Shown in pieces: positions 20,273 to 58,843 of a stretch of 64,000 nt of DNA; position 1 is the first letter of the stretch, and each line of letters starts with the position of its first letter. Under the pieces are notes generated by a model. The model saw nothing but the letters and a program-made list of their open reading frames with translations, did not search any database and was not told the origin of the DNA. The DNA is from Schmidtea polychroa. Taxonomy: Eukaryota. The translations under genes were made by a program, and so were the position numbers. Location of the stretch: assembly GCA_044892525.1 (NCBI GenBank), contig CM097885.1, forward strand, positions 200,756,001 to 200,820,000, in the 5' to 3' direction.

Positions 20273-21049
20273 TCATGAGAAAGGTTGTTGTGAGAATGCT
20301 TCTCCTTCCGCGAGCATTTCGTCAATATCGACGGGTAAATAGTGATCCGTGACATATTTAATTCCTCCCGCCGGAACTATCTTAAAAATCTCCTTGGAGG
20401 GAATTGAATGATTCGAGGATATTTCCTTTATGGTGGAGTTAGCTGCGGATAACGACGCTTTGAGAGCTGCCATCGCATCTCGGCGTTTCTGGTTTTTCTC
20501 GGCTCGGGTTGGACGTTTCCGTTTGCGAGATGATGGATGGTTATCCGCGTTCGAGGTGACGACAGGTGCTATTAAGATGGGAGCTAAGATTGAATCGGTA
20601 GGTCCACCTACCAAAGGTTGATAGCTCGATAACGTTGGAGCCGGAACTGGTGGCAAATATGAACCATGCCCTTGACAGCTGGTGGTAGTCAATTGAGGTA
20701 CTTGATGATGAAGCGGGAAGACATTTGTACCCTCCAAGACGGGAAACTCCCGCACCCGCTTGGCCAGTTCCGCCTCCGTATAAACTTTATGGAGGGCCTC
20801 GGACTGGGCTTTAATAGTCAGCCTTTGGCATCGGCTCTCTTCCAGTAGGCTGTCCCTACAGTGCTCCAGCCTGAGGATCTTAGCCTTTTCCTCCTTCATC
20901 TGTGGCGGGGAGAACCACGTTCCTTCATAAAGATCTATCCTCTTCTTGAGGGCCCCTATATATAAATGAAGTTGCGCGATGTCCGAGTTCTTGTCAGAGC
21001 AAGAGAAACACGGACGAAGTTCTTTGGATTTATTGGATGGTGCTGTCAT
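20273..21049 (-). CDS. Unknown 258-aa protein carried by element A
   Basis: Intact ORF starting immediately after an acceptor (ttctag|ATG); homologs at 41940-42664 and ~31345-31597. Confidence 0.75.
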   Translation of the reverse strand: MTAPSNKSKELRPCFSCSDKNSDIAQLHLYIGALKKRIDLYEGTWFSPPQMKEEKAKILRLEHCRDSLLEESRCQRLTIKAQSEALHKVYTEAELAKRVREFPVLEGTNVFPLHHQVPQLTTTSCQGHGSYLPPVPAPTLSSYQPLVGGPTDSILAPILIAPVVTSNADNHPSSRKRKRPTRAEKNQKRRDAMAALKASLSAANSTIKEISSNHSIPSKEIFKIVPAGGIKYVTDHYLPVDIDEMLAEGEAFSQQPFS

Positions 21050-23337: not shown

Positions 23338-23392
23338 TACTCTACTAATTTTTCGCGTTTCTTATATACTATTTTTCGTCCAATCAGGACGC
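23338..23392 (-). promoter_or_regulatory. CCAAT + TATA promoter of element A, pointing inward
   Basis: Minus strand ctgattggac...gtatataag; same arrangement in element C (~44837-44895). Confidence 0.6.
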
Positions 23393-24699
23393 GTCTTGGC
23401 TTGTAATTTTATTATTTATTATTATTTTTATATTTTTATTGTAATTTGTTAGCTTTTAATAACTTAACTTAGTACTTATTATTATTTTATTTATTTTCTT
23501 ATTTCTGTTATTTTTTTCCTTATTTTTTCGTATTTTTCCTACGGTTTTATTGTTATTTTTTGTAACATAATTTTGTTTTAATTAGACTTATAATTGGTTT
23601 TATTTTTATTTTGTTTTTATGGTAATTTATTTTCTAACTTTGTTATATTACTTCTATTTTGTCTGTTGGATATCTTGGATTTTATCTCTTTTTGTCTTGT
23701 TCTTACATCTTAGGGGTTTATTTATTTTGTTACTTATTCCAATTTCTTTTCTTAATATCTTATTATTCTCCTTATTTATTACTGCGATTTTACTGTAATT
23801 TATTTTGTATCTTATTTGTTTATTTACGGGGTTCGTCTTCTTCCGATTTGATCCAGTTTTTCAACTCCAAAACTTAGCCCAACACAATGCCACTACCTTT
23901 TTCAAGTGTGTTTATTATCTCAAGCTTTTTTTTCAGATGAGTTGGATTTGATTATGAATTTTCATTATTGCTATTTTTAATTTTATCTTAATCTTCACTT
24001 TCAATATTTCGTAAATGATTAGAATGATAAAATAATATGAATAATAATTTCTCTTATTAAATTCGACGCGAAATTAGTTTTATCATTTAAAAGCTAATCA
24101 GTCTTATCAGAAAAATTATCATTATAGTATATATTCTAAGAATTCACACTGAAAATACGAGTAAAAGGACTTTTTTTATACATTTCTTTTATGAAAGCTA
24201 TCTACAACAATAAAGGTAATGAGTTTAGCTGCAAATATTACTGAATGAATCGTCTTTTGTTGACCAAGTATTTATATGAGTTTTTCTGAAATTTACCAAA
24301 CCAGTCGAAATTCTATAATATGCTCGTATTTTCTATTTTTATGAGTCAAAAACTGTCAGCCGCTGGAAAACTAATGACTATCAAATAGCCAGGCCGTCGA
24401 CAGACGCATCGCTCAAAGTTCACGTGCAGCAACAATACTTTAGTTAAGTTTACTTGCTTACCTTGTTGTTAAATTTATATATTTGCTGTGCAGTATTATG
24501 TTCTCAAACTTAAATAAAACGAATTCAAAGATAATATATGATTCGTCTTTTATTATAATTGTTCAATAACATTATTTTTTATTTAAAAGATATAGATAAA
24601 TAGTTATAAAGAAGTAAGCCTTACGATGATAATAATGACGATGTTAACGATCAGGCTGATGAGCCCACGCCTAGTACAACTAAAAATTTCCCTTCTCCA

Positions 24700-28154: not shown

Positions 28155-30985
28155 TAAGGTGCATATTAAACGTATATATAAACGTATATATAAAACGTAT
28201 ATATTTAAACGTATATATAAACGTATATATTAAACACGTTCTCCGACGAAGCATTCGGTGTTAGGTTTTTCTCAAGAGTTGGTAAGAAATAAACTCCCCA
28301 CGAAGGAAGATGTTTTAAAGCTAATATATTGGTGAGAGCGCAACAGTTAGAACAGGAAGTCAGATAAACACTACTAATGAATTATTAAAAATTGTAGCTC
28401 ATAATGATATGGGAGAAAGCAAGCATTCCAACAATTCTAATTCCTAATATACTTGCTCAATTGAAGAAGATCGTAAAAAGGAACAAAAAATTACAATATC
28501 TGCAATGTTCATAAAAAAGACTTACGCGTAAAACAAAGTAAAATGAGTTCTTAAAAATAAGGTTATCAACTCCATCAACTAGTCAAATGGAAACAAAGTT
28601 GATTCATGTATATGACACAGAAAAGCCCAATTTCGTCATTAGTTCAATTAAAGAAAACTTTTAAATTGGTCTTGATAATTCCAAAACTGAAAAAGAAGAC
28701 AGCAACCAAAACAGATGCAAATATCCTTGTCTAAGTGCAGTTATAAACAGAACAGGCGTTAGCAATCTAGACGCAAGTAAAATTATTAATGCATGCTTGC
28801 ACAACATGGAACATGCTCAGCTGAGCAATGTACTGGAAGCGACAAAACTCAAAAGATTGAGAGTGTATTGGCGTAAAAAGCCTATAGAAAATCAAGCAGA
28901 GCAAGTACAGGGACTAATATGAATTGATTTCGATGGCAGAAAAGATGACACAAAAGTGGTAGAAACAGATAATATCAGAAGAACACACAAACAAGACCAT
29001 TATGTTGTCAACTCATTTCCTGGTGATCAGTACAGTGATCATGTGTCTCATCAAATCGTTAATTCAAGCGATATGACCATAGAACTTGTTAGACGCAATT
29101 AAATTCAAATCTTCTTCAAACATTTATTTTTTATAACAACTTGAAATTGTATCTTTTTTTTAGTGTATTTAAACACCGAGGCGTGATAATTCTTAATATT
29201 AATGTAGTTACTGGTCATACATTTAATTGATTTAATTTATATAATTTAATATAATATGATATAATTTAATATAGAATTTAAATATAAAAATTTAACAGAT
29301 AATTATTTCTACTAACTGATCTCACTTCTATCATTTAACCATAATAATTTTATATAGGGGTTTACTAACACCTTACATCCCCCCTTCTTTAAAATGCTTT
29401 AACTTTTCTATATTCCTCGTTATTTTTCTCCCGTTTTCGTCTGTTAATAAGTAACTTCTTTCATGATTTCGTTTTATTACTGTGTATGGTCCTTCATATC
29501 TTTCGTGATCTTTGTTTCTAATTTCTTGTTTCACCAATACGTCGTCCCCCACTTCTAAGTTCCTAGTTGTGCCAATTTCTTTCGCTTGCTGTCTTTTAGC
29601 CTCTAATTTCCGCATGATTTCATTTCTATCCACTTCATTGTTACTATGCCATTGCGATCTATTAATCTTTCTCCCAAATATAATTTCTGCTGGACTCACT
29701 CCAGTAGTTTTTTGAGCTGTTGCATTTAAAACGTATTCTATATCAGGTATTAATTCTGCCCAGCTTTTTTTAACTCCTTCTCTGAGTGACGCGTTAATAT
29801 AGTCTCTTTTAGTACGAAATTATCTTTCGATTACACTATTAGTATTATGATGATACGGACTCGAAAATATCAACTGAATTCCTGCTGCCTTTTCTAGTTC
29901 TTTAATACTATTTGCTTCGAAATTCTTTCCACGATCAACATGTAATTCCTTAGGGGCTCCAAATTTCAATATCCAATTATTTAACAAAACTGCCTTTATT
30001 ATATTTTCATCTTGCTTTCTAAAAGGAGTTAGAGATATGTATTTGCTGTAATGATCGATTATTTCACAAATATATTTTTCTCCTCTGAAGGTTTCTCTTA
30101 ATGGACCGCAAATATCCATGTATATTTTCTCCATAGGTTCTGAAGCTTGAATTACTTGAGTTTTTTCTTTTGACTTTGTAGTTAAAACTTTGTTTTTCTG
30201 ACATGCTTCACATATTGAAATAGTCTTTTACTTCATTTAGCAAATCTTCCATATCAAAATTGTTCCTAATATAATTCATAACTGTTTCTACTCCTGCGTG
30301 GCATAATAATAAATGTGTTTTCTTAATCATTTCTCGTCTTTTTGTTTCTGGTATCCATATTTTGTTTTGATTGGTATAGATAATATTTCCTTTTAACCTT
30401 TATTTATTATTTTCTTTTCATTTATTTGATCTTTTATTTTTTAGAGGCGTGATAATTCTTAATATTAATGTAATTACTGGTCATACATTTAATTGATTTA
30501 ATTTAATATAATTTAATATAATATGATATAATTTAATATAGAATTTAAATATAAAAATTTAACAGAGATAATTATTTCTACTAACTGATCTCACTTCTAT
30601 CATTTAACCATAATAATTTTATATAGGGGTTTACTAACTCCTTACAGAACTGTTGTCCGTAATCCACGACACCAAGTCTATTCATTCATTATGCGATATC
30701 ACCAATGTCAACACAGGGCAAAATAACGGTGTCATACGGAAGCTGGAAATGAGCTGTGACTTATTTGCATGTTGCATTTGACTGAATTGCCCTTTTGAGA
30801 TGTCAATAAACTACTCGATGGTAAAACCTTTAGATCTACACAACTGACGGGTGCCATTGGATGTTAACTCAATTTGGACCCTTGCTCAATACCCATTGTG
30901 TCATTTTGCGCAAATGTTGGTCAAGTGGTGAATTTGGATGCTGACTTTGAGGATAATCTCACTCAAGACCAAAAACTTTGCTGAT
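28155..30985 (+). mobile_element. Degraded hAT-superfamily (hATm-like) transposon, split by the 29087-30646 insertion
   Basis: TAAGGTG start with aaacgtatatat subterminal repeats; IWEKASIPT, FDGRKDDT, TNVNTGQNNGVIRKLE, LICMLHLTELPF and DNLTQDQK motifs; frame restored across the GAACT TSD. Confidence 0.7.
29087..30646 (-). mobile_element. Internally deleted Ty3/Gypsy element F (partial 5' LTR + integrase + 3' LTR)
   Basis: 5-bp TSD GAACT; 3' LTR 29087-29377 after the PPT; 5' LTR remnant 30444-30646 fused directly to pre-integrase sequence (HLLLCHAG...C..C, DICGP). Confidence 0.9.
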
Positions 30986-32324: not shown

Positions 32325-35300
32325 TGTTAGGGATATTTAAATATAGTAAAAGTATATAATAAGTATAAATGCTGGCACGCATAATTATCATTATTATTAA
32401 ATTAATTAATTCGACATTTAAATCGATTGTTTGAATAATACCAGATTTAGGCAATCAATTTGTATTTTCATACATTTTTAGGAAATTTGGCTTCAATTAT
32501 TAACATGGTGACCCTGGCAATGATCAATAAAATGATCCCAGATATTTACGATGGCAGCGTCGATGTAGAAATTTTTATTGGAGAATGCAAGAGGTATTTC
32601 CAATTATGTGGACTAGAATAATCCAGACAAAGTATAATGATCAAATGCTTGATCGCAAGAGAGTTGTTGACGATTTATGAAGCAATAGAAGAAAATGAAA
32701 CTTGTTTTGAAGACAGATTGAAAAAGACTTTCAAGAAGCCAACGACGTTGATAGGAGATTATCTAAATCTTTGCAATTATGAAAGGAACGAGGATACTGC
32801 CCCAGTATATTTCGAAAAAATAGAAAAGATGGTTGACCAAGTTCTGGAGCACAAATCGGACAAGAAAGAATTAATGTCATATTTTTTGGTCCATTGTATC
32901 TAAGACAAGGATACAGAAAGAAATAAAGATGAGAGATGCGATGAGCGTCGATGAAATGAAAAGAGTGATAAAGAAGATCGGTGATATAAACATTGAAGTA
33001 TCCGAATTTCAGTTATAAATAGAAGGAGGGAAACGTTTGCGAGTATTATTAAGACAAGGCAAGGATTTGCCGATAGACAGAACCAAAGCAGAAATTTTAC
33101 AAATTCACAACGGATCGAAGTGTAATAATAGGCATAAATAATTACTTTAAGAATTGTATGTTGGATACAGGAGCTAGAATGAATGTGATTGATAGTTCGA
33201 TTATAAAAGAGATCGAAAATCCAGTTTTAAACGAACACGGAGACAAAATTTGATGCGCAAATGGTAGTCCATTAAAAACTTTGGGTAGACACAAGCTTAG
33301 AATAAATATAGGAAATAGAGAAGAAAATATTGTTTTTGTAGTAGTTGAAAATGGATCTCCATCAATATTTGGAGGAAAAGATTTATTACGTAGGTTTGAC
33401 ATTAAAATAATGAAAGTTATCGAAAATAACAGCGCAAATGCAATCAAATATAATAATAATATAGAAATATACAACTGAAGCCAAATTTGGGAAAAGAACG
33501 AGTGATGAACTTCGATTTAAAAGAGCAATAGAATTAGTAGGATTACGGTGTGACAACAATCTTTATGGAGTAATAAAAAATGCGAAAGTATTTATGATAG
33601 ATAAATGGGATATAGGCAAAACCAATCTATTAAAGCATGATATTAAAACTGTTGAATGATCATTCCATTTGAACCCAAGAAGACAACCAGCTCACTTAGA
33701 AGAAAAGATTGAAGAAGCTATTAAAATATTGGAAGAAAACGGCATAATTAGGAAGTGTGACTCACCGTGGAATACGCCGTTAGTATGTGTTTGGAAGAAA
33801 GAGAAAAATGATATTCGATTATGTTTAGATTTAGATTTATTTTAGAAGTTTAAATAAAATGACAGAAAAACAAATCTTCTCAATGCCTAATATCGAACAG
33901 ATGTTAGATTCATTAAATGGATCAATGTACTTTAGCACAATTGATCTGGGAAGTGCGTATTATCAGGTTGAATTGACAGCAAATTCGCAAGAAAAGATAG
34001 GGTTCTCAACAAGATCAGGACAGTTCTGCTTTAATAGGATGCCATTAGGAATAAGTACATTCCAAAAATTAAGGAAATTTATTATGGAAAATTGTTATAG
34101 TGTATTTAGATGATATTTTAATATTCTCAAAAGACAGAGAAGATCATATAAAAAGAATAAATGAAGTATTAGAAAAATAAAAGAAGCAGGATTGAGAATA
34201 AATCCTGAAAAATCCAAATTTTTGGAGAAGGAGTCAAACTTTCTTGGTCATATTATAACTTGTGAAGGTGTTAAAGTCGATGAAGCGAAAATCGAAGCAA
34301 TAAAAGTGTTTCAAAGACCAAAATGTTTAAAACAATTGAGGAGTTTCTTCGGACTGTGAAATTATTACAGAAAGTTTATAAAGAATTATTCAAAATTCGC
34401 AAGAATATTAGAATCGATGTGCGGAAACAATAAAGACAAGTTTGTTTGGTCACAAGAATGTCAATAAACTTTGAGGAATTGAAGAAAGCACTATCAACTA
34501 CACCAGTTCTAATATATCCTAATTATGAGAAAGAATTTATTTTGGATACGGATGGTAGTTCCTACATCATTGGAGCTGTTCTGTCACAGATTGAAGGTAA
34601 TGAACGTGTTATTGACTATGGTTCACATTCGATGAGTAAACCTGAAATAGGATACTGTATCACGAGAAAGGAACTTTTAGCAATTTATTACTTTGCACAG
34701 CATTTTAAGTACTATCTGTACGGCAAGCTATTCCAGCTAATAACGGACCACAAGGTTATAAAATTTATGATCACAACTAAAAAAATACATTGGCACAATT
34801 TCTGGCATGGATAAGCCTCTTGAGTAGTTTAGATATGGACATTAAATATCGAAAAAGAATTGACCATTCAAACGCTGATGCGTTATCGAGAGATAAATTT
34901 CAGAGATGTACACAGTGTATAAAAATTCATGAAGATGCAAAGACAGAGAAAAATAAAAACCAGATTGCTGACAGCTACTAAACATGGATTTCAATGGCTA
35001 AAAGGAAATGAAGAGATAGAACATATAAGAAAAGTAATTGATAAAAATGAGACTACAAGGTTTAAAATTGACGAAGATTTAATTTTAACAAGAGAAAATA
35101 AAATTTTGATTCCAAAAGAAAATAGAATAGAATTTGTCAAAGACATGAACAAAATGCTGTGTCAGGCTGGATGTAAGAAGGTAATCGAATATATAAAAGT
35201 TAATTACGATATGGAGTAATTAAATACAATCGCGACTCAATATATACAAAGTTGTGAAATATGTCAGAAAGGAAAAACCTTGACAACAAAAACAAAAGAA

Positions 35301-36094
35301 ATAGTTGTAAAAACACAAGTGGTGGAACCGTTCGAGGTTATAGCGATATATTTTTGTGGACATTTGAAGGCAAACATTCATGGAAAGAAATATATTTTGG
35401 GAATTATAGATATGTGTAGTCGATACATTTCGTTAACAGCAGTAGCAAAGCAAGTCGAAAAAACTATAGCGGATACTATTGTGAAATTCTGGATATTAAA
35501 ATATAGGGCACCGAGAGTTATTCAAATTGATTGTGGAAAAACATTTGAGTCTAATTTGATAAAAGAGTTGGCAAAGAATCACAATATACAACTAAAGTTT
35601 TCTAGCCGTTATCATCATAACACTAATGGTTTGATTGAAAGACAATTTCGAACTATACGAGATTTTATCAGTACATCATTAAGAGATAAACTTAAGAGGA
35701 ATTGGGTTGAAGTGTTACCTGAAATTGAGTTTACTTTAAATGCTACTATTCAAAGCACAATTGGAAAGAATCCATCAGAAGCAGTATTTGGTTTTCGGAT
35801 ATCTAGAGAATGGAACAATAATAAAAGAATCTACAACGATAGAAGTAAAATAGTGGAGGAAGTGCAATCAAAACAAAGAAATTTAAATTATAAAAATGAG
35901 AACCGGATACACCGAGAATTCGATATAAATGAAAAAGTTTTAGTTAAAGTAGACGTGAGAAAAAAAGAAGACCTATATACAGGTCCTTTTGTCGTTGTTA
36001 AAAAGATCCATGCAAATAGTTACGAATTACGAGACAGAGAAAGAAAAATTATAATTCGCAATGTTGAATGCCTAAAGCTTTTTAAACAGGGAGA
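32325..36094 (+). mobile_element. Degraded Ty3/Gypsy element D (181-bp 5' LTR, gag-PR-RT-RH-IN)
   Basis: LTR 32325-32505, PBS TGGTGACC, LDTGA protease, YLDD RT, RNase H, GPF integrase and PPT at 36083-36094; many stops and frameshifts. Confidence 0.9.
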
Positions 36095-36893
36095 TGTTAG
36101 TGATATTCAAATAACTAATTTATATTCTAACTTTTACTATTTGAGCTGGTTTGCTTCCAATTCAATTGTCTTCTCACGTCTCTAATATCGCCTAACTCTA
36201 TCCGTTCGTTCCCTAACTTCATAATTGTCCTAAGCTCTATTTCTTTGCATCCCTAGCTGAGGCAGAATGCCGGTTTACTCTGATTTTCCCAGTCCTTATA
36301 CACTCTTTGAAATCGGGATGACAAATATTTATTGCCGAGCCAATTTCTCTCCTGAAATTTGACTCCAAATATCTGCTTCGGCTGCCACCCAGAATGGTCC
36401 GACAAACAAAGATAATTAAAGGCCCACCAGGTATTTCTGCACGTACTATCCTTTTCTTGGTCCCCTCCTATTAACCACTGTGACAAGACAATGGGCCCAA
36501 ATCTTCCTTCTATTTACTTTTCTCTTTGTTTGCCCAACTCGAGATTTCTTTGTACTAGCTAATTAATTAATTTCATTTTCTTGTTTTTCATCCTTTACGT
36601 ACCTTTTCGCACTCTAGCTATCACTTTCTGAAAATTCCGTTATCACTATGTTATTCCTCTCTACATGTTCCACTCATGACCAATTTTCCAGACTTTAATT
36701 CGGATTATGAATCTTTTATCGATTTTCCACAATTCACATTTTTGTGCTTTTCCCATATATTGATGTCCCTTCTCAAGCTTTTCTACCCATTTTATTACTT
36801 CTCAGTCAATTCTCTCCATAACCAGTCTTACACCTCTCTCGTTCCTTTAATTACAATTATAATTTTACTTTTAATTATTTTATAACCCCAACA
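36095..36893. mobile_element. 799-bp LTR-like element occupying the 3' LTR position of element D
   Basis: TGTTAG...CCCCAACA; shares ttgagctgg, a minus-strand TATA and tgtact..ctaattaatt in order with 18010-19000, not with D's 5' LTR. Confidence 0.7.
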
Positions 36894-38289: not shown

Positions 38290-39992
38290 CTATAAAAATA
38301 TCAAAATTAATGTATATAAATTAAAACAAAAATTTTGGCACATTTAAAAAAATGAGAACGCCATATATTCTAATTTAAATCTATTTTATGGGCATGTTAA
38401 ATATCTTCTGTCAGACTAAAACTAGTCTTATAAAGGCATTGACGTGATACTATTATGACATAAATTGTGTCACACAATTGACATTTTAATTAAACAATCA
38501 ATAAATTACCAAATTCCACTCTACAACATTTTCATCACTATTAGAAGTTTGGTTTCTTAAATTAATCACATCCATATTTTAAAAACAAAACAAAACTATA
38601 TTTTGAAAAACAACACAAAAATCACTATTATTAAAACAATCACTGTTTTTAGCTTAGAGGATATTTTCGCAAGCATGAGTTAATATTTGAATAGGGAATA
38701 TTCGTACACAAGCATTCAATAAATAGTTTATATTTTAATCTTCAATCATTCTTAAATATATTTAATTTATTATTTTAATTTATAATTTTATTATTTACTT
38801 TAATTATATTATTTAAATCTATTTAAATCTGGAAATTAAATACTTCTTCCATTTAATTACTTTCACAATCACAATATTCCTAACCAAATTAGTGATAAAA
38901 CAATTAACTTTTGATATATAATATGTTGCATGGAATTAAATGCATTTTAAGATGTCACTGTCAAAAATTTATTAGAAAAACATGGAGGAAATTTTTTTGA
39001 GAATCGAAGAACTCTACTTTGAGTTGTAGAGAAAATGATGAAAAAAATTCGTAATATTGGTTTATAAAATTATATAAGAAATTTAATATTTCTATAGAAT
39101 TTCAGATATTTATGTTAAAACACTGACTTTTTGCGAAAATGAAGAAATTACAAATAATTTAATTTTTTAAATATTTCACACATTTCTTTTCAAACTTTGA
39201 CTTTCTGTGAAGGTGAAATTTCAAATATTCAACCAGGTCCTTCTACGTCTTGATTTCAAGACGAAAAATAAAAAATAGTAATTTTTAATTTAAAAAACAA
39301 TATTTTGATAGAATTTCAAAACATGACAAAATTCCATTATTTGATGTCTTCGAAAATGGAAGATTGTTATGAATTTAGAAGATAACTGAGAATCACTAAA
39401 AAATCAATTGAAAAAATAATTTACAAATACAAAAATCTGGAGAAATTTCCAAAGGAAAGAGGTGGCAGCAAATAAATTATTTCATAAGAACAGGGAAATA
39501 AATGAATTTAAAAATATGTATTTGTCGATTACTTTCTTTAATAAATTATAGTTAAAAATATATCTAACTTACATAATATGGAAATAATTTCAAAAAATAT
39601 CCCATGTATAAATTCCGAAAAAATAAGCTGAATAATTAAAAATTATAATACAAATTGAAAGGGTAGAATTCACGTTTAAGTTAAAACTGGATATTGCTAA
39701 AAAACATTTAAATTTTATATATCAGATTACATAAATTTTTATATAAATATTTAAATTAATAAATTAAAGTAAGTTTAAAATATAAAAATAAATTAAATTA
39801 TATTAAATATTAAAATAAATTAAACCAGCATTGAAATCAGCATCAAAATTAAAATTATAAAAAAACCTCGAATAGATTGTTTGAATATTACAAACAAGCG
39901 CAGTTTTTTGAATAAAATAAATTTAGTAATTTTATTTGTTTAATTTATTAATTATGGAGATTGAAAATGAATTCAACGTTGTTGCGACTAAC

Positions 39993-41033
39993 ATGGCGAC
40001 CACGCCAACAAACCTATTGATTAGCACGTTGCTACCAGAAAGATTCCACAGAGACGACGACCTGGAAGAATTCATCTAAGAATGCCAAAATATTTTTAAT
40101 ATTACGAAAACATCTGTCAAGATGCAGATGGTTCTGGTTACCACACTGTTGGATAAACCATTATACGATGAATATGAAAAAACAGAAGGAAAAACATTTG
40201 AAGAGAAGCTCATATCATCATTTTCGAGGCCAAAATCATTATTCGAAGACTTAAAGGAAGCTCTAAATTATGAACAAGGATCTGATTCAGCAGACCGCTT
40301 TATCGAAAATGTAGAGAAATTAACCAAAAGATTATTGCGAGATGAGTGGAACGAAGAAGAAATTAAAAAGTGCCTGCTCATGAATGGGGCTCGAGAGAAA
40401 AAAGTTAAAAAGGAAATAGAAATGCAAGAACTAAAGACGTCAGAAGAAATTAAAAGCACAATTAGAAAAGTTGAGAAAGTGAATAAAGCTATAAACCATG
40501 TTAACTCCATCCGACCTATAACATACATGAAACCTGTCAAAACCTACAGAGATGCCGTTCAAAGACCCGCACAGACAAATACGATGCCAATGTCAAAACC
40601 ATTGGAAGCGACTAAGAACGTCGTATGCTGGGCATGCCAAAAACCAGGTCATTTAAGCCGAGAATGTACTATGAAGAGGAGGATTCAGTGTTTTGGATGT
40701 GGATTATATAGACAAGTACGCCGAGAATGTCCAAACATTCAGTGTAGGAGATGCCATCTACAAGGTCACAAAGAAACTGAATGCTATACAAACCTAGAAA
40801 GATTTAAGCCGAAAATGAATCATTACGGAAGAAATAATGCAGCACACCGAAATAAAGGGGGTCGATTTCAACAGAACAATCAGCATAACAGAAGAGAGGT
40901 AGCAGCAATTGGAAATCAAGATGCAAACTATCAACTGAATTATTCAAGTGAAGCCGAAGAGAAATACGACGAAATGCAATACCCAAACGAGGAAGCTCCA
41001 TCACAGGAGGCGATGATAGGAGCCATTTATTAG
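39993..41033 (+). CDS. Gag of element B (one in-frame stop near 40078)
   Basis: MATTPTNLL...; CWACQKPGHLSREC and CRRCHLQGHKETEC zinc knuckles. Confidence 0.85.
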
Positions 41034-41373
41034 GTAATTTTGATTTTGATGAAAATGCTGGTTATAATAATGTAAATAATTTTTATAATGTAAATAATTT
41101 GAATAATGTAAATAATTTGAATAGTGTAGATAATTTTAATTTTTTTTAGTAAAGATTTATGTAATAATATGGATGATAAAACTAATTTTAATGTTTATAA
41201 AAGTAGCAGTATAGATCATAGAAATGAAAACAGCAAAATAATGTATAGCGATGAAAGAACAGGAGAAAAAGTATATAGTTTCTTAAAAATGTCATTTGAT
41301 ATGAATGAAGATAAAATTGGGTGGATTAATGAAATTTCCAATAGCATAAAGAACAAAGTGGAACGAAATATAT

Positions 41374-44300
41374 TGTTGGCGGGTAACTACTCAGATGACC
41401 CCCCTTTGTTCCGCGTTTAATCTAGAGGATGAAATGCCCACATCGATTTCGCTCGCCTTTATTTTTGTCATCGCTGAGCAGGACCCGTACATAACCTACA
41501 CTCCAGCATAGCACCCGTGAGTTGCGTCACGTTGGAACTGTGCGATGCCGGCGAGACGCCAGTAAGCAGGTGAGCCAGCTCTTTCGGACTACTCCTTACT
41601 GAGGCCTCGACTTCCTAACCCCGACTGCCGATAGAAGGACTTACGTCTTCTCACTCTGTCGCCCGTCGCGATGCCCCTAATTGGAGTTTCTAACTGACTA
41701 ATGCTCCTCGTTTCGTGAGACTCTCAATGCTGTTCACCTATCTCGTATTCACTATTTTACGACAAAACGAAACGCATATATAAATGAAAATGGTTTATTT
41801 TTGGCATTATCATGCAAATACATCGAGAGCTTATACATCAATATTTACAAGAACAAGAAAAACATAAAGATAAAACAAAAATGATTTCGGCAGGTGTTCT
41901 GGTCTCTCTAGAGAATGAGGCCAATTTCAGGGGAGATCCTCATTTCTCCCACTCCGAGTCGGCGAGTAACTCGCTTAGATCAAAAAACTCGGCGGCGTTT
42001 TCTTCCCATGTCACCCCGGCGGCGGAGATGACTCGCCCGGAGATCCCGGCTGTTAGGTCGACCATGGTTGGATTATTGTTACTGCTGACTGGAGCGATGG
42101 TTGACGATGTACACTGCTTGACCGATGCCCGCTCCCGTTGTTTCCGTTTGCGTTCGGCTCGAGACAGTTGCCGACGTTTCGGTTTCGAAGTTGCAGGTGT
42201 TTGCACGGCCGATGCCGATGCAAAGTTCGCCTGGACCCTACTAGTCCCGGTGACTTCAATGTCTGGGTTTCTGGGAGAAAGCTCGGTCTCCACGCACTCA
42301 CGGCAAGACTTCCTGAGAGGAGATGAAGACCTGACAGAGGTATCGTGGTGCGCTGGGAAAAGATTGCTGGCTTCACCAATTGAGATCTTCGCTATCTTCC
42401 TGGTGGTTGCTGCCTGGACATATAATTTATGCAGCGCTTCCGACTCTGTGCCCGGCTCTCGGCAATTAGTGCATCACAGCAATGCTCACTTCGATACAAC
42501 TTCTTCCGGGTCTCCTTCATCTGGGAGGGACTAAACCATGTCCCCTCCAGCTCGTCTATCTTCCGTTTGTACTTTCCAATTTGAGCCTGTAGGTCTCTGA
42601 TGATCGAATTCTTGTCTGCACAAGAAAAACAAGGCTTGAGAATGGTTTTTGGATTGGGTAACATCTGGAGAGGCTAGGAAGAGAAGATGAAAAATAAAAA
42701 TAAATCTAAGTCAAATTGGAACGTCTCATCCGGTGACAATCATACTTTACTGACCATAGGTAGTTTACAGACAAACCGGGTTTATTAGCCTAGAGAAATC
42801 CCTTATACAACGGGTCTTGTATACTTTGGGTCATCATTCATATGATCATTCATACAGAGCTTTACTGAAGGAAGATAAGGTATAACCCCTGATAAGGGAA
42901 ACTACAAGTTAATGAAATAAAAAAAATTAATTAGTTTACTTGAAAAGATCAAACAGCCTGGAAAGGTAGTTTAGATTAAATTAAAGATGTACCCTAAGCA
43001 AATAATGTGTAGATCTGTTATGGAACTATGTCAATAACTTAGAAACTTGTTATTTATAACAGGCAGGACTCTATTAATTCCCCTTCAATTATTTATTGAT
43101 GATAATTAAGACCTTTACAAGTTGTTTGCAATAATTTAGTCAGGATAAATAAGAAGTTTTCTAATTAAATTATAATCATTTATTCATGCACAACCCAAAC
43201 TTGTTCAGATTAAATGAATACACAACTTCACGCAAGTGAACCCTAATTAATTATCTGGCTATTGCCTACTACTTCCAAACGGTGAGAATCTAGCGTCTGT
43301 CATTAGCTTGATGGTAATTCAGCTGACACATTATGTCTGATTCCCGGCGATTTATAGTGCATGTGGGTCTATATACTACATTGAACCTCTGCCGTGAGTC
43401 TAAAAACGTGTGATCACCTGGAGCTTCACTCTCACCTACTTATTAACAATCGCGATTTCTGACAAATGTTCTCATGCGATATTTTATGTTTGAGTATGCA
43501 TGCAGATGTAGTTCCTCCGTAGCATGTAATGCTAATTGATCAGCTGTGCACACACCCCAAATCCTTCTTCTCACACTATTGACATGCGAATTATCAGGGA
43601 AATTTTGGAAAATTAAAATTCTATGCATCACTGTTATAGAAATTTTTCTACTTCGTGGACGGTTTCTCTAAAACCCCTCAACTACCATTTCTCAATTCAA
43701 CTCGTGGCCCTCGGTCATCATCAACATATGCTATCTATTCCTATCGATTTGAAAATTTATTGCTTGATTCAACTCCGGATTGCAATTCAACGGTAGACCG
43801 AGAGTTCATATTTAATCTGTAAGCATTATCACGATAAATTGTTTTCTAAAAATTACATTTTTCCTGATTGGAGTTACTTGTGCTTTTAATAATAAAAAAA
43901 ATTGTTTGAGACTATTTATTTTCGTAATTCTATATAACTACCGCTTTAAGAGAAACTCATGGATGATGAAATGAGTAATCACGAAAGTTCGTTGGCTGGA
44001 AACCGTAAGACTAGACTTTGAGTAAAATCCGGAACCCCGATAATAGGTCACACATAATATTGCTAACGTTTGAACAGTTTTTGACGAAGGACTTGAATCT
44101 TTTGGCGATAGAAAAAATTTGAACGGAGTAAAACGATGTTATGATACGATAGTGCGACACCCTCAATCACTACGCGAATATACAAAAATTTTTCCAATTC
44201 ATGTACTCATTCTTCCACACTATTCTTCTCGCATGATTTTCTATCGAATTTAGTCGCACCTTCAGCGACGGACCCGTGAGGAAGCCCCCACATTACGGCC

Positions 44301-45224
44301 CGAATCAGCTGCGTGATTGAAAAACCCCATGTCCACCGGCTGAGCTCCCGAAGGCACCTCACACCATGACATGGAGTATCTCAACGCCACGTTTCTCGAA
44401 AAATTTGAATAGCATAAAATCACAAATAATAAGATTACTGATGCATAATAAATCATTTATTGTTAAATCACTAAATCATTCAATTACGTAACGCATTTAA
44501 ATCAAACGAAAAGAGAACAAAATTTTAAAAATAAAAATTATAATTAATGCATATATACATAATTATTGCTTAATAGACCTAAATATAAAACGAAAAACTC
44601 CTTACCAAGTATTCAATATAGGCTGAGTCGAAAACACTGGGTCGAATCGGTTGATGCTTGAGTAGAGTATAGATTTAGTTGAAGTTTCTTGATTTTCTGA
44701 AATAGTCCTTGTAAGCTACTGTAAGTCGGTGGCTGTTAGCTGTGAGTTGTTGTTTCTATTGCAATTGTTGGATTAACGGTAATTAACGGTAGTTAAAATA
44801 CACTTACCTATTGCAATTGTTGGATTAACGGTAATTATTATGATTTTAATGTCTGCTTATATATTAATTTTCTATTTACGCGGACCAATCAGAATTGAGT
44901 ACCGCATAATTTTATTATTTTAATTTATTTTCCTTGTTTTTGAGTTATTTCTTCCTATTTTCTTTATTTTTCTTATGTTTTTATTTAATTTCTTTGATTT
45001 CCTTATTATTTGCTACATTTTACGTTATTTTTCGTCATTCTATTGTCCTATTTTAATTTTTCTTAGTTTTATATTTTTTGTTTTAATTCTTATTTTCTAA
45101 TTATTGTTTTTATATCTTATTTTATTGTATTCCTAAATTTGTTTATTTTATTTTGTTTTCTTTTAATCTCTTGCTTATTTTACTTTCTTAGTTTCCCAAA
45201 TTGATTTTCCGACTCAGCCCAACA
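41374..45224 (-). mobile_element. ~3.9-kb LTR-like gene cassette (element C) nested in pol of element B
   Basis: TGTTGG...CCCAACA; 4-bp TSD ATAT; removal restores B pol ...VERNI|FTKDEWKGPR in frame. Confidence 0.9.
41940..42664 (-). pseudogene. Homolog of the element-A unknown protein, one ~19-nt frameshifting deletion
   Basis: PCFSCADKNS...EGTWFSPSQMKE...EHC..ESRAQ/SEALHK; starts at ctccag|ATG. Confidence 0.8.
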
Positions 45225-48200
45225 ATATTTACGAAAGACGAATGGAAAGGACCTCGTATGACTTATCATAAAATGCTAGGTAGACCAAGTATAACACTTG
45301 AAATTCAAGGACGCGGAATCGAGTGTCTATTAGATACAGGAGCACGAGTTAATGTAATGTCTAAAGCAGTACTGGATAAATTGGACAAAGTCGAGATAAT
45401 AAAAACAGATGAAATGCTAAGGTGTGCAAATGACAGTAAATTGGAGACTATAGGAAAAGTTCAAATTGAGGTAAAGATAGGGAAGCTAAGAAAAATAGTG
45501 ACCTTTACCGTCGTAGAAAACATTGTCCCAGATGTTATTGGGGGTATAGAATTACAGAAACAATTCGGTATTGAATTAAGATGGATTCAAGAAGGTGAAA
45601 TGATATCTAACGAACGTATATGTGAAATTGATGCTAAATTTGGGAGGAATATTACAAATGAAGAAAGATTCCAACATGTGATAGAGAAGTTGAAAGTAAA
45701 AGAAGATAAATTGCTTGTAGAAATTATCAAGAGAAATAAATGTGTTTTCATGGCTGATAAGTGGGATGTTGGATGCACTGATTTAATTCAACATAAAATC
45801 GAAACAAATGGCGGACCAATAATGAAAAAGCCCAGAAGACAGCCTATAAACTTGGAAGAGAAAATAAACATGGCCATTAAAAATCTGGAGGATAATAATA
45901 TTATAAGGAAGTGTAATTCACCTTGGAATACCCCTTTAGTGTGCGTTTGGAAAAAATAAAAGAAGGATATCAGACTCTGTTTGGACTTTAGACAACTTAA
46001 CAAAATTACTGAAAGACAAGCGTTTCCGATGCCTAACGTTGACGAGATCTTAGATGCTTTGCATGGTACTAGATATTTTAGTTCTATTGACCTTGGAAAC
46101 GCATACTATCAGTTGAAGTTGGATAGAGATTCACAGGAGAAAACAGCTTTTTCAACGAAAGAGGGGCAATTCTGTTTCAACCGAATGCCGTTTGGCATTG
46201 CGGCAGCACCAGGAACCTTTCAAGAGCTCATGACGAAGATATTAAAGGATTTATGGAAAGACGGGGTAATGGTTTATCTGGACGATATATTAATTTTTAC
46301 TAACACAATGGAAGAACACTATAAACTGCTGGAAAGAGTATTGCAGAAAATCGCAGAAGCTAAACTAAAAATTTATCCTGAAAAATGTCAAATACTGAAA
46401 AGCGAAGTGAAATTCTTAGGCCATATTATAATTAGAGACGGCATCCAAACAGATCAGAGCAAAATTGAAGCTATTCAATCATTTCAAAGGCCGAAATGTG
46501 TGAAAAATTTAAGGAGTTTCTTGGGTATTTGCAACTATTATCGAAAATTTATTAAAGAATACGCAAAGAAGGCAAGAGCTTTAGAGAGTATATGTGGTAA
46601 AAATAGCGACAAAATAATATGGAATGAAAATTGTGAGCAGGCTTTTGAGAATATGAAGTTGGCATTAATAACCGCACCGATTTTGGTATTTCCTGATTTT
46701 TAGAAAGAATTTATACTGGATACGGATGCAAGTTTCGATACAATTGGCGCAGTCTTATCACAGAAGAATGACACGGGATATGAGCAAGTTATCGCATATG
46801 GCTCACATGCGATGAATGACCACAAAAGAGGCTATTGTATTACAAGAAAGGAACTCCTGGCTATATATTATTTTTGTCGGCATTTCAATCACTATTTATA
46901 TGGGAAAAGATTTACACTACGTACAGATCATAAAGCAATAACATTTATGCTAACCACGAAGAAGCCAATTACAGCTCAATTCCAGACCTGGATAAACTAT
47001 TTAAGTAGTCTTGATATAAAAATGGAATTTAGAAAGGGTACACTACATACTAACGCAGACATGTTATCAACGAAAACGTGTGGCACATGTGTACAATGTC
47101 TTATGGAACACGATAATCCTAAAATGGGAAGAATGACAACCAGAATGTTAAATATAATGACTGAAGACAAAGGAGAGGAATGGCAAATGAATAGTGATGA
47201 AATAGAGGAGATTAAAAATAAAATAAGAACGCAAACGAGTGGAAGGTTTATAATAGAGGATAATATTATTTATACCAAAGATAAAAGAATATGGATACCA
47301 GAGAGCAAAAGAAGCGAAATGATTAACAAAACACATCTATTACTGTGCCATGCTGGAGTTGACAAAGTTATCAAATACATACAAAACAATTTTGATATGA
47401 GAGATCTAATAAAACAAGTAAAAACGACAATATCAAATTGCGAATCGTGCCAAAAAGTTAAAGTTGTAAGTACAAAGATGAAAGGGAAACCAAAAGTACT
47501 TGAAGCATCCGAACCCTTCGAGAAAATATATATATGGGCATATGTGGCCCAATGAAAGAAACATTTAACAGGAAAAGATACATTTGCGCAATAATCGACC
47601 ATTACAGCAAATACATCTCGTTAACAGCTATAAATAAACAGGATGAAGAGACAATTGGGAAGATATTGTTAAACAACTGGATTCTACAATTTGGGGCACC
47701 CAAAGAACTACATCTAGATTGCGGGAAAACATTCGAAGCTAATAGCATAAAGAATATAAGCAAAAATGCAGGGTTCGAGATAGTGTATTCGAGTCCATAT
47801 CATCATAATACGAATGGTATAATCGAAAGACAATTCCGGACAATAAGAGATTTTATTAATGCATCGTTGAAAGACGGAAATACAAAAGACTGGGCAGACC
47901 TTATCCCAGATATAGAATATACATTCAACGCAACCATTCAAAAAACAACGGGAGTAAGCCCAGCTGAAATTATTTTTGGTAGGAAAATTGATAGATCAAA
48001 ATGGTATAATGATAGTAGAATCAACAGGAACGATATCGCATTGAAAATTGAAAGTAAAAGACAAAATGAGGAAACAACAACTGCAAGGAGGTTGGATATT
48101 GGAGACAAAGTTTTAATCAAACGAGAAATACGAAACAAGGATCAAGATAGATATAAAGGACCATACACAATAACAAAATGAATACACGATAGCAGTTATA

Positions 48201-48274
48201 TGCTGAGAGATAAAAGTGGGAAGTCTTTAATCAGGAATATTGAAAAGATTAAATAATTTAAAGAAGGGGGATGA
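45225..48274 (+). pseudogene. Pol of element B (PR, RT, RNase H, integrase) with stops and a frameshift
   Basis: LLDTGA, YLDD, DTDAS, HxxxCH-C..C and GPY motifs; stops at ~45959, 46703, 48181; frameshift near 47545. Confidence 0.92.
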
Positions 48275-48959
48275 AAGGGTAGAATTCACGTTTAAGTTAA
48301 AACTGGATATTGCTAAAAAACATTTAAATTTTATATATCAGATTACATAAATTTTTATATAAATATTTAAATTAATAAATTAAAGTAAGTTTAAAATATA
48401 AAAATAAATTAAAATATATTAAATATTAAAATAAATTAAACCAGCATTGAAATCAGCATCAAAATTAAAATAATAAAAAAGCCTCGAACAGATTGTTTGA
48501 ATATTACAAACAAGCGCAGTTTTTTGAATAAAATAAATTTAGTAATTTTATTTGTTTAATTTATTAATTATGGAGATTGAAAATGAATTTGACGTTGTTG
48601 CGGCTAACACAAATATTGACTAAAAGTAATATTTAAAACTTGAATAATGATTTCATATTTATATAAAAAATCAAAATTCAAATCTTAAAATTTAATTAAA
48701 ACCAAAAATCTTAAATTCCTAAAATGACTAAAATATGTAAACTTATAAATTAACTTCATTTCATCACAAATGGTGAATCACCAACCAGTATTAAAGATAC
48801 TTTTATTCCGTATTAACAGGTTTAATTAAAATTAAAATCCAACCATTAAAGCAGACAAACACAGGCTTACAATCTCAGAATAAAAACCATGAGAAGGATG
48901 CTCCGATTTATTTCACAACAATAATGAATATTCTAAACCTTGATCTATTTAATTCCACT

Positions 48960-54548: not shown

Positions 54549-54551
<3 letters not shown>

Positions 54552-57500
54552 AAGATGATATAATAATTTCCTAAGAATTACTTACATAACCAGGTCACTA
54601 GACCTTGATATCTATTGAATGATGCGGGAATGCTTGTATAACTAAATTAAGTAAGTATGTTTGTCTTCTGTGTCAACAGTATCACTTAAACTAATAATTC
54701 TCCCTTTTGTAGATTACGCAATTCAATGTACTATAAATATTATAACGATTGTGTGTTCCGTTTAGATTTTTGTAGTGAATAAATATTTCTGTGAACTATG
54801 TCTTTTTCTAACATGGCGACCACGCCAGGACTCCAGAACTATATCAAGCCACCTAATCAATTGCTGCCAAATGGTGATTTAGAAATTTTTATTTTGGAAT
54901 TGAAGAGATTTTTCGAATTCACTCAACAACCGCAAGAAATTCAAGAAATTGTTACTAAGGCCTTTCTGTCGGTAGAGTTGATCCAGAAATATGAAGAAGT
55001 ACAGAGCGTTTATTCAGGCTATGAAGAAAGATTAAGAAAAGCGTTCGAGCCAAGGAAAAATCTAGCCATGGATCTAGACGGGACCAGGCGATTTAAACTG
55101 CAGAGATGTTGGGCGTGTGGAGAGCAAGGACATATTCGAGCAGAATGCCCAAACGTAAAATGCTCTCAATGTTCCAAAAATGGTCATTTCAAGTATCAAT
55201 GTTGGGACATCAGAAGAAATTCAGTTAAAACAGAAGCATATTACAACGGAAGAAATTATGATAGAAATCAAAAACAATTTGGATCCAGAGGACAATATCA
55301 AAGCAGAAACCAATCTTCAGACAGAGGACCACATCGAAGACAATGCAATGCGATATACGACTACGAATACGAGGAAGGAGAGCTGATTCAACAGGATGAC
55401 ATGCAAAAAGATTGCGAACAGCTAAAAGGGGAGGCTCCAGTTTCAAGGGAGTTGCTAGGAGCCATAAATTTGGTTTAAGTAAGTATATTGTTGACACAGA
55501 ATGTTTGAATTTGAATGCTTGTGATTTCAAGATTTCCGTAATGAATAAATTTAAAGATGATTTAAAAATTAATGATGTAATTATGAATGATTGTGAATGT
55601 TTTGACTTTGAAAATTATTTTAAATATAGTTTTTATGAAATTAATAACAAAATTGATAAGATTATGAGTATCGATATAATTAATAATAAAGTTAGTGAAA
55701 ATAAAGAAAGACCTTTTGCACCTAAATTCGTTTACGAAAGAATGAATGGCAGACCTAGTGTAGGTATTTGGCTGGAAAATAAAATAAAAGTTGATTGTCT
55801 TTTGGATACCGGGGCTAGAATAAACGTGATTAGCGAAGATGTTGTTAGTAAATTAAAGATGCGTGATAAAATAGGGGAATCCAATATTATGGTTACATGT
55901 GCAAACGAGAGCACACTTAAAATCATAGGAACAATATTACTAAAAGTGAGAATTTCGGGATTAGAATTGGTAATAAGATTCTTTGTGGCAAATAAGATTA
56001 ACCCGAGCGTAATTGCAGGCGTAGAAATGATGAATTGTTATGATATTAAATTACAGGCAGTAACTAAAGTAAAATTAAAAAATCAATTAATGAATTTAGA
56101 GGAAAACAATTTGAAAGGAATTATCGACCCAACGATTAATAAATTACTTAAAGAATTTTCGGATATATTCATGAAAAATAAATGGGATGTAGGAAAAACA
56201 CAGTTAATTAAACATAAGATAGTTACTAGAGGTAGCCCAGTGACAATTAATCCTAGACGTCAGCCGATTCATATTGCTCACAAAATACAAGACATGCTAA
56301 AAGACATGGAAGAAGCAGGAATTATAAGAAAATGTGACTCGGTGTGGAATAGCCCATTGGTATGTGTGTTAAAAAAGAATAAATCAGATATTAGAATATG
56401 TTTGGATTTTCGCGCACTAAATGCAATTACGGAGAGACCTCGATTTCCAATACCAAATATTGAAGAGATGATGGATATCCTAAATGGAGCACAGATATTT
56501 AGCACTATCGATCTTGGTAATGCTTATTATCAAGTGGAATTAGAAGAGGAATCAAAAATAAAGACTGCATTTTCAACAAAAGATGGTCAATATTGTTTTA
56601 ACCGAATGCCTTTTGGAATTGCAGCTGCCCCAGCAACTTTTCAAAAATTAATGACTCAAGTTTTAGGTGATCTTAATTGGAGAGAAGCAATTGTTTATTT
56701 AGACGATATCCTTATATTTGCAGACAATGAAATCGAACATAAAAAAAGACTAGAAAGAGTTTTTCGAAAGATTCAAGAAGCTGGTTTGAAAATAAGCTTA
56801 GAAAAATGTTGTTTTAACAAACTAGAAATAAAATTTTTGGGACACATTATAAATAAAAATGGTATTAAGACAGATTATGAAAAGATAAAAGCAATGCAAG
56901 AATATGAAAAACCAAAATGTATTAAACGTTTAAGAAGCTTTCTAGGCTTAACAAATTATTATCGAAAATTTGTTAAAGATTACGCCAAGTATGCAAGACC
57001 ATTAGAAAGGTTATGTGGGTCTAACAAAGATAAACTTATATGGACTGAAGAATGTGAAACAAATTTCAACACGCTAAAGAAAGCGTTAAAGTCTACCCCA
57101 GTACTAGGATTTCCGGATTTACGAAAAACCTTTATTTTAGATACAGATGCTAGTTTCGATACGATTGGGGGAGTGCTTTCGCAGTTGAGTAGTAATGGAC
57201 AAGAACAAGTTATTGCATATGGATCAAAGACAATGAATAAGCACGAAATCGGTTACTGCATTACGCGAAAGGAATGGCTTGCAATCTATCATTTTACTCA
57301 GCATTTCAAACACTATCTATATGGAAAAAGATTTACTTTAAGAACCGATCATAAAGCTATAACCTTTATGATAAATACAAAAAAGCCAATTACAGCACAA
57401 TTCCAGACATGGATTAACTATTTAAGTGGGCTAGATATCAAATTAGAATACAGAAAAGGAGAATTGCATGCTAACGCAGATGCCCTATCAAGGAAAGACT

Positions 57501-58843
57501 GTACTTCATGTAGTCAGTGCCAAACAGTTCATGAAAACGCCAAGGTAGATAAAAATAAAACTAAAATATTGGCCATAGAAAATATAGACCAAGAAATAAA
57601 AGTAAATAATGAAGGTGTAATTTTTAATATACATAAAGACTTATGTCACGCAGGGGTAAAAAAATTTACGAATATGCACGGAAAAATATGAAAATGAAAA
57701 TTAGTGAAAACGAAGTTAGAAGAGTGATTGAAAATTGTGAACAGTGTCAGAAACGGAAGACGTGGACAAGACGAACAAAAGAACCGCTGATTAAACAGAG
57801 TACAGATGAAGTTTTCAAAGAGATATTTATTGATTTCTGCGGACCATTTAAGAAAACAATTCATGGAAAACAATATATTTTAGCTATAATTGATCAATTC
57901 AGTAGGTATATATCATTGACGGCAGTTGCTCATCAGGATGAAAAGACGACGGCAAAGATTTTAAGAGAAAATTGGATTTTGAAATTTGGTGCCCCTAAAA
58001 TCATTCACTCCGATAGAGGAAAAACATTTGAATCTCAACTCCTTTTAGAAGTGTTGAAAACGCATCATATTACAATAATATATTCAAGCCCATATCATCA
58101 TAGTACAAACGGTTTAGTTGAGAGGCAATTTAGAACTATAAGGGATGCAATTGCAATTACGTTAAAAGACAAACGGCATAAAGATTGGGCAGAAATATTG
58201 CCAGATGTGGAATTTATGTTAAATGCGACGATACAGCAGACAACCGGATTTTCGCCCTCTGAAATAATATTTGGGCGGAATATTTGTAGACAATGGATGG
58301 AAAAAGATAATTTGGATATACAAAATAATGATGCTAATAATCGGAGAAGGGAGATCGTGGAGGGAATTAAACATAAAAAAAACATAGAAAAGAATTTAAT
58401 TACACAAAATTATAGGAATTTTGAAGTTGGAGACCAAGTATTGGTTAAAAAAGAAAATACTAGAAAGATGGATGAACGTTATGAAGGGCCTTATGAAATA
58501 ACTGGAAAACGACATGACAGAAGCTATGTTCTAAAGAATAAGCAAGGCAAAGAAATAATTCGAAATGTAGAATGGATCAAAAGTTTTAAATGGAGGGGGA
58601 TGTAAGATGATATAATAATTTCCAAAGAATTACTTACATAACCAGGTCACTAGACCTTGATATCTATTGAATGATGCGGGAATGCTTGTATAACTAAATT
58701 AAGTAAGTATGTTTGTCTTCTGTGTCAACAGTATCACTTAAACTAATAATTCTCCCTTTTGTAGATTACGCAATTCAATGTACTATAAATATTATAACGA
58801 TTGTGTGTTCCGTTTAGATTTTTGTAGTGAATAAATATTTCTG
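54549..58843 (+). mobile_element. Ty3/Gypsy element E (3' LTR cut by gap)
   Basis: 265-bp 5' LTR next to (TA)n; PBS TGGCGACCAC; gag 54813-55478; pol 55412-57691 and 57643-58605; PPT; near-identical 3' LTR from 58601. Confidence 0.95.

Follow-up and report, generated by a model that had tools for sequence, protein, structure and literature searches.

The window analyzed here is a stretch of 64,000 nucleotides of the Schmidtea polychroa genome (assembly GCA_044892525.1, contig CM097885.1, positions 200,756,001 to 200,820,000), and unlabelled coordinates below refer to it. Our subject is C, a sequence lodged in the pol gene of an ordinary Gypsy retrotransposon, B. The best overall explanation, which we hold with considerable confidence, is that C represents a solo long terminal repeat (LTR) derived from a Burro-like Gypsy element of ~28 kb, likely left behind by LTR-LTR recombination, and that the 19-nt deletion disrupting its open reading frame (ORF) is private to this copy and likely arose after insertion. 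The flagged event, a nested and decaying solo LTR, is ordinary, whereas the anatomy of the family is not: its giant LTR houses an orphan gene, kept under selection and apparently spliced, which is new as far as the literature search reaches, the original Burro description lying outside the comparison.

C as a probable solo LTR of a giant Gypsy element

The features on which this assignment is based are as follows (TSD, target-site duplication; PBS, primer-binding site).
41374–45224, minus strand (element sense): C, solo LTR, 3851 nt; its paired sisters (96–97%) surround a PBS and gag-pol
41370–41373, unstranded: left copy of the TSD of C, ATAT; empty B sites have a single ATAT
45225–45228, unstranded: right copy of the same TSD
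39656–48609, plus strand: B, ordinary Gypsy with 338-nt LTRs and a 5-bp TSD, CAAAT

Used as a genome query, C produced 45 matches, from 40 scored among 3300 candidates. Four C-type sets consist of sisters (96–99% identical) that share a strand, are spaced 23–30 kb from each other and enclose internal sequence; the LTR-LTR differences in these sets amount to 11/3843, 9/3364, 2/2015 and 5/1710 positions. A common 4-bp TSD is present at the outer ends in two of the four sets (AAGG for L005/L007 and ATTA for L009/L011); the third belongs to a tandem array, and in the fourth one end is interrupted. The L007-L005 element is 28.5 kb long, of which 20.8 kb are internal. Seven nucleotides from the end of the 5′ LTR lies the PBS, an 18-nt stretch complementary to the genomic tRNA-Pro(TGG) at its 3′ end, with CCA included. 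The LTR-PBS junction has 668 matches genome-wide, and because of the PBS the element sense must correspond to the minus strand of the window. Among unpaired LTRs, 13 of 15 are flanked by a 4-bp TSD and none by a 5-bp one; the 4-bp TSD is the norm of the giant-element lineage. No polypurine tract was found before the 3′ LTR, where all families have a conserved mixed-base motif of ~30 nt, while the tract of B is ordinary. Together with the position of the PBS 7 nt off the LTR end, the missing tract suggests unusual priming or end processing.

The mixed-base motif upstream of 3′ LTRs L005, L128, L132, L136 and L143 ends with GAGTGATT. Tandem arrays sharing a middle LTR were also encountered: L037 (G000:C1:220687754) is such a middle LTR, bordered by a PBS at one end and by the pre-LTR motif at the opposite end. 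The regions C2:37.31–37.36 Mb and C1:72.65–72.70 Mb contain three ORF copies each, 26–27 kb apart.

The second cassette of the window belongs to a sister lineage.
19741–23884, minus strand: A, solo LTR, 4144 nt, TSD CAAT, with an uninterrupted 258-aa ORF at 20273–21049

The ORF of A used as a query likewise retrieved many pairs ~26 kb apart. Among the further pairs fetched (seven A-type, three C-like or partial), 7/10 have a 4-bp TSD and the same PBS, their LTRs being 0.02–0.5% apart, in agreement with the initial annotation that several subfamilies were active recently; in the other three the termini were left unresolved. The high divergence noted between A and C is real: across most of their length there is no alignable DNA, and between A and C types synonymous divergence (dS) is saturated and the ORF proteins are only 37–39% identical (38% with an intact C sister).

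To characterize the internal region, 17 internal and LTR frames, read as they stand, were scanned against Pfam. Retrotrans_gag, zf-CCHC, Monjiviricetes_fusion (E = 3e−71), RVP, RVT_1, RT_RNaseH, rve, Ank and MATH were found, the last two above the cut-off, whereas Rad60-SLD (SUMO-like, E = 3e−4) and RING (E = 2e−3) fell below it. Gag, zf-CCHC and Monjiviricetes_fusion are encoded in a single 2158-aa frame, and in another frame the fusion domain is followed by RVP. The internal order is Gag with three zinc knuckles, a SUMO-like domain, an Env-like fusion domain, protease (PR), reverse transcriptase (RT), ribonuclease H (RH), integrase (IN) and ankyrin, then a RING-MATH ORF and further ORFs; the succession PR-RT-RH-IN is that of the Ty3/Gypsy type. 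All four copies examined carry stops or frame changes in their internal coding stretches. The RT of the giant element is 40% and its RH/IN 26–28% identical to those of B, which supports the proposal that a different integrase accounts for the 4-bp TSD.

According to PMC6431247, Burro/GYPSM1 elements are giant gypsy-like LTR retrotransposons of planarians, with an internal region of up to 25 kb and an ORF1 in which an Env-like region lies between gag and PR, together with SUMO-like, ankyrin, RING, MATH, BIR and BCL2-like domains. Compared with that description, the elements studied here are similar in size (~28 kb total, ~21 kb internal), in their three CCHC knuckles, in an Env-like region between gag and PR, and in the SUMO-like, PR-RT-RH-IN, ankyrin, RING and MATH components; the likeness is judged from the described architecture. 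They differ in that RING-MATH has an ORF of its own, located past pol, and in that BIR and BCL2-like domains had no Pfam or PDB match in the internal frames scanned, which are part of all such frames; before Env there is only a GGW motif.

As initially annotated, C splits the pol of B and has ATAT on both sides; it starts with TGTTGG, ends with CCCAACA and lies immediately upstream of the protease motif. B pol has its own stops and one frame change. The LTRs of B (39656–39993 and 48272–48609) differ at 7/338 positions and its TSD is the 5-bp CAAAT, also as first read. The right flank of B used as a genome query gave 40 matches, 30 of which were taken as loci, one being the window copy. All 29 other B loci (29/29) contain the empty, uninterrupted site without C, and therefore C inserted into this B copy, after B as the initial annotation had supposed; co-transposition of C with B was rejected on the same count. 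The empty site is also spanned by a contig of the public run X7.

Private changes give a similar picture. In a comparison of nine C-type LTRs, 21 substitutions in 3793 columns (0.55%) are private to C; for the pol of B the count is 14 in 1169 (1.2%) among 30 copies, and the LTRs of B imply ~1% each. Judged by these counts, C is about half the age of B or younger, the order that nesting demands, and the claim that C is recent stands. Private changes range from 0.34 to 0.79% in unpaired LTRs versus 0.08 to 0.26% in paired ones, a comparison in which the shared changes of one pair lower its count. The simplest history would comprise insertion of a full element into B, recombination between its LTRs to leave a solo LTR, and private decay. 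Ordinary nested solo LTRs have TG...CA ends, one TSD and private decay. C shares all of these with them, and differs by its size of 3.85 kb and by the predicted complete transcription unit inside.

The frameshifting deletion was also correctly identified: 19 nt are missing from the ORF of C near 42443, so that the first stop is reached at 42392, after 90 aa. However, the gap occurs in none of the 10 sister LTRs compared, nine of which have the full 247-aa frame and one a stop at 223 aa. An assembly error, or inheritance from an unsampled parent copy, is improbable; the deletion is seen in the assembly alone and the 40 LTRs scored come from 3300 candidates, but the gap is clean, has a 2-nt microhomology and stands beside other changes private to C, the 21 substitutions and an insertion of 4 nt. 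The proposal that C moved as a non-autonomous cassette or Ginger-like DNA transposon, mobile recently despite its broken ORF, must be judged highly improbable. Its TGTTGG...CCAACA ends, 4-bp TSD and many unpaired copies would agree with such an origin, but the terminal inverted repeat is only 6 bp long, the sisters are direct repeats around a PBS and gag-pol, and the deletion is unique to C among the copies compared, an outcome that the initial annotation had itself set against its proposal. Ginger DNA transposons encode an integrase-like transposase and end in long terminal inverted repeats. Membership of C in that group was rejected on its 6-bp inverted ends and an ORF without integrase match. 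C belongs to an autonomous-type giant Gypsy lineage with 4-bp TSDs, not to Ginger. The suggestion that the ORF product is dispensable in cis also fails: C says nothing in its favour because the ORF of the family is under strong purifying selection (see below).

Internal deletions of 2105 and 1698 nt were also seen in the C-type LTRs L022/L030 and L018, respectively; they have 4-nt microhomologies and lie off the splice sites.

A predicted spliced gene within the LTR

The following features were identified within C, all on the minus strand.
44857–44889: predicted promoter, reversed CCAAT box (44885–44889) and TATATAA (44857–44863); same layout in A-type and C-type LTRs
44808–44837: predicted exon 1, 30 nt, starting 26 nt past the start of the TATA box
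44756–44807: predicted 52-nt GT-AG micro-intron, whose final 30 nt are an exact repeat of exon 1
42665–44605: predicted large intron, placed by position, with donor at 44605 and an acceptor adjoining the ATG, for which two AGs separated by 10 nt are candidates
44456–44461: candidate poly(A) signal AATAAA, ~150 nt past donor 2; weak, in A-rich sequence
44263–44390: near-invariant two-hairpin block in the large intron, in subfamilies whose remaining intron is only 65–78% alike
41940–42664: LTR ORF, 247 aa in sisters and 19 nt shorter in C near 42443
41500–41647: third conserved donor-like GTAAG followed by hairpins, common to A-type, C-type and a third family

In the sense direction, both A-type and C-type LTRs begin with the reversed CCAAT box and TATATAA, followed 54–57 nt on by a donor and, in most copies, a GT-AG unit of 44–52 nt. 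The second donor comes ~200 nt further on, and after it AATAAA, an AT-rich stretch, the acceptor by the ATG, the ORF, the third donor-like motif and the hairpins. The TATA box and donor are present in 45 of 55 terminus-like matches, several of the other 10 being chance matches or interrupted copies, and AATAAA was found at a similar place in all 18 LTRs that match the promoter pattern (of 23 tested).

The micro-intron is exactly absent from four LTRs (L014–L016 and L111). The repeat of exon 1 at its 3′ end measures 24–30 nt and begins 24–31 nt after the TATA box. Within an LTR the two copies of the repeat match on average at 20 of 22 nt, versus 12.6 between types (15 distinct types); that is, the copies vary in step within an LTR while the types differ.

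The large intron is very likely real. In an A-type element at C3:35.745–35.778 Mb, with its TSD CTTA intact, 2181 nt from AAG/GT to AG/ATG are gone from both LTRs, and an exact GT-AG loss from both LTRs is the trace expected of reverse-transcribed spliced RNA. The exact loss constitutes genomic evidence of splicing and is a single event; the intron-less A-type junction has two occurrences in the genome.

Judging from substitution patterns, the lineage maintains the LTR ORF as a genuine gene under strong purifying selection. Between subfamilies dS is 0.5–1.6 and nonsynonymous divergence (dN) 0.07–0.17; dN/dS is 0.16 for L002 versus L012, 0.03–0.06 in the N-terminal 99 codons and 0.07–0.10 among A-types. 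The coding motif of the ORF has 1401 exact matches in the genome. Structure prediction yields two long helices (13–99), a disordered middle part, a basic helix (175–191) and a short acidic C-terminal helix. The R/K-rich helix 175–191 and the C-terminal tail, D-L/I-D/N-E-L/M-L/I, are conserved across the LTR proteins; as modelled, both would suit RNA-binding and export motifs and, equally, a nuclear localization signal (NLS) and an activation domain. Against Pfam the ORF protein produced only sub-threshold coiled-coil rows and no integrase match, and the best value in an Atlas search was 0.83.

Further unsampled ORF variants occur among the coding-motif matches, for example EGTWFSPVQMKE. An antisense frame over the ORF was dropped, as it is not conserved, spanning 216–271 codons in three C-types, 117 in L025 and 87–136 in six A-types.

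Two blocks of the LTR are predicted to be structured. The intron block, ~130 nt long and nearly unchanged among C-type subfamilies, folds with z = −3.97 in C and z = −3.58 in L141, in which the stem is changed on both sides; the A-type intron has a stem of its own (z = −2.73). The 3′ block has 30 consensus pairs, 17 of them with two-sided changes (13 related sequences).

A third, more distant LTR family also has a 3′ hairpin block (L006:5996–6175 and L027:3870–4049). Within the intron hairpin, positions 44340–44360 (minus strand) resemble the tRNA-Pro primer site, a resemblance lost in L141/L144.

Possible regulation and its alternatives

These observations may be combined into the following scenario. 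The predicted transcription start lies ~30 nt past the TATA box, close to the 5′ terminus of the LTR. The ORF would then lie in a U5 region (the LTR part downstream of the start) of ~3 kb and be translated from spliced RNA, while the intron-retaining RNA would serve as the genome. The micro-intron could be rebuilt at strand transfer through annealing of the spliced 5′ end with the second exon 1 copy; the position of the repeat after the TATA box and the in-step change of its copies fit both a start at the repeat and such intron-restoring transfer. The LTR protein, with its helical hairpin, basic helix and acidic-hydrophobic tail, might act on the intron block in a Rev/CERV-like manner, sparing and exporting unspliced RNA. 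By analogy, a role in regulating export or splicing is tentatively preferred for it, ahead of transactivation or modulation of the host. The joint proposal, in which Burro-type LTRs would be self-contained spliced genes with a ~3-kb U5 holding a Rev-like regulator and its RNA target, with a self-copying micro-intron and with each solo LTR, as a promoter-plus-gene unit, supplying the regulator in trans, is possible but unlikely to hold in every part. If it did, minus-strand strong-stop DNA would be ~3.4 kb long, and spliced 5′ ends would be reverse-transcribed without intron loss.

Several results weigh against this scenario. The intron-less C-type junction has no match in the genome, the intron block is unalignable between A and C types (score 52 versus 41–57 for shuffles), and the 3′ block of C itself is no more stable than shuffles (z = 0.32). 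In the element without the large intron, the micro-intron is present in LTR L134 but not in the partner LTR L133, and a DNA-level deletion between the repeats may therefore mimic splicing. Contigs from X1, X6, X7 and X3, of presumed RNA origin only, contain no splice joint over 41200–44400. The protein model is weak (pLDDT 56.6, pTM 0.24); no homologue was found among 701 candidates of near length or by profile against 1.84 billion sequences, and Foldseek gave no match at E ≤ 0.001 in PDB or BFVD and no fold match to any export factor. Finally, the start and poly(A) sites are predictions, and so is the placement of the ORF in U5 and not in U3 (the LTR part upstream of the start).

The alternative to U5 is that C is indeed a solo LTR, but with its ORF in U3, as in mouse mammary tumour virus (MMTV) sag; the TATA box would be an internal promoter of the ORF and the genomic RNA would begin close to the third donor, at the LTR 3′ end. 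Intron loss from both LTRs could also arise from the 3′ end of the RNA, C has a TATA-like TATATAT and an AATAAA after the ORF, and the best-conserved cross-family block lies near the LTR 3′ end. Yet this arrangement leaves unexplained why the exon 1 repeat begins 24–31 nt past the TATA box and changes in step, and neither A nor L135 has an AATAAA following the ORF; we regard the arrangement as distinctly unlikely. A different question is whether the LTR protein activates transcription or modulates the host instead of exporting RNA, which is possible though doubtful. The basic helix is NLS-like and the conserved acidic-hydrophobic C-terminus fits an activation domain, and the element has other host-directed domains (SUMO-like, ankyrin, RING and MATH), as would suit a host modulator. 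What speaks against either role is the layout itself, which is that of Rev and CERV (PMC10309623): removal of a structured intron creates the gene, and the same RNA must also be kept unspliced.

MMTV sag and human immunodeficiency virus (HIV) nef are coding sequences located in the LTR, in U3. The gene described here resembles them in lying inside the LTR but differs in that the ORF is predicted to be downstream of the start site. No homology of the LTR protein to MMTV sag, HIV nef or Rev-type regulators was detected in the homologue, Pfam and fold searches. A precedent is CERV of the Cer1 element of C. elegans, which PMC10309623 describes as an orphan protein made from a spliced mRNA and needed for export of the unspliced genomic RNA; CERV has been tested experimentally and is large, with three structured domains. 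Common to both are an LTR retrotransposon, an orphan protein and a spliced mRNA (predicted in our case), but by that description CERV differs from the gene studied here, which lies wholly within the LTR and is carried by each solo LTR. As in HIV Rev and its Rev response element (outlined in the same text), a small basic regulator would be paired with a structured intron element, here predicted from sequence. The passage on Burro in PMC6431247 mentions no ORF, intron or promoter layout within the LTR. No ORF or intron in Burro LTRs was found in the literature either, although Grohme et al. 2018, its supplement and the Repbase entry were outside the comparison and may describe one.

With an orphan LTR gene that has ~1400 motif matches and is retained under selection even between lineages with saturated dS, solo LTRs would count as protein-coding units and not as bare promoters, and giant env-bearing Gypsy elements would gain a control layer like that of complex retroviruses. 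For annotation, the lesson is that a 4-kb TG...CA "cassette" of this genome has to be read as an LTR.

Additional observations

A dip in contigs over the large intron is also seen in X3, from which nothing is concluded on expression, and a T-run at 41458 in a single X6 contig is too weak a signal to be used. The tRNA-Pro 3′ motif has 1580 matches genome-wide; L148 (G000:C1:130.90–130.95 Mb) is a long tRNA-Pro(TGG) gene array with a 475-nt period, and further tRNA arrays are present on C4, C140, C333 and C474. One hAT-type transposon (DUF4371, Dimer_Tnp_hAT) is inserted in the C-type LTRs of two elements (L036:3071–5533 and L037:1581–5141), at different sites, each copy being bounded by short inverted termini and an 8-bp duplication. 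In the window, Gypsy pol remnants akin to B (64–79%) are located at 29380–30387 (minus strand), 34470–36185 and 54549–58843, and the two LTRs of the pair 54549/58601 are 100% identical over 243 nt, after which a stretch of N follows.

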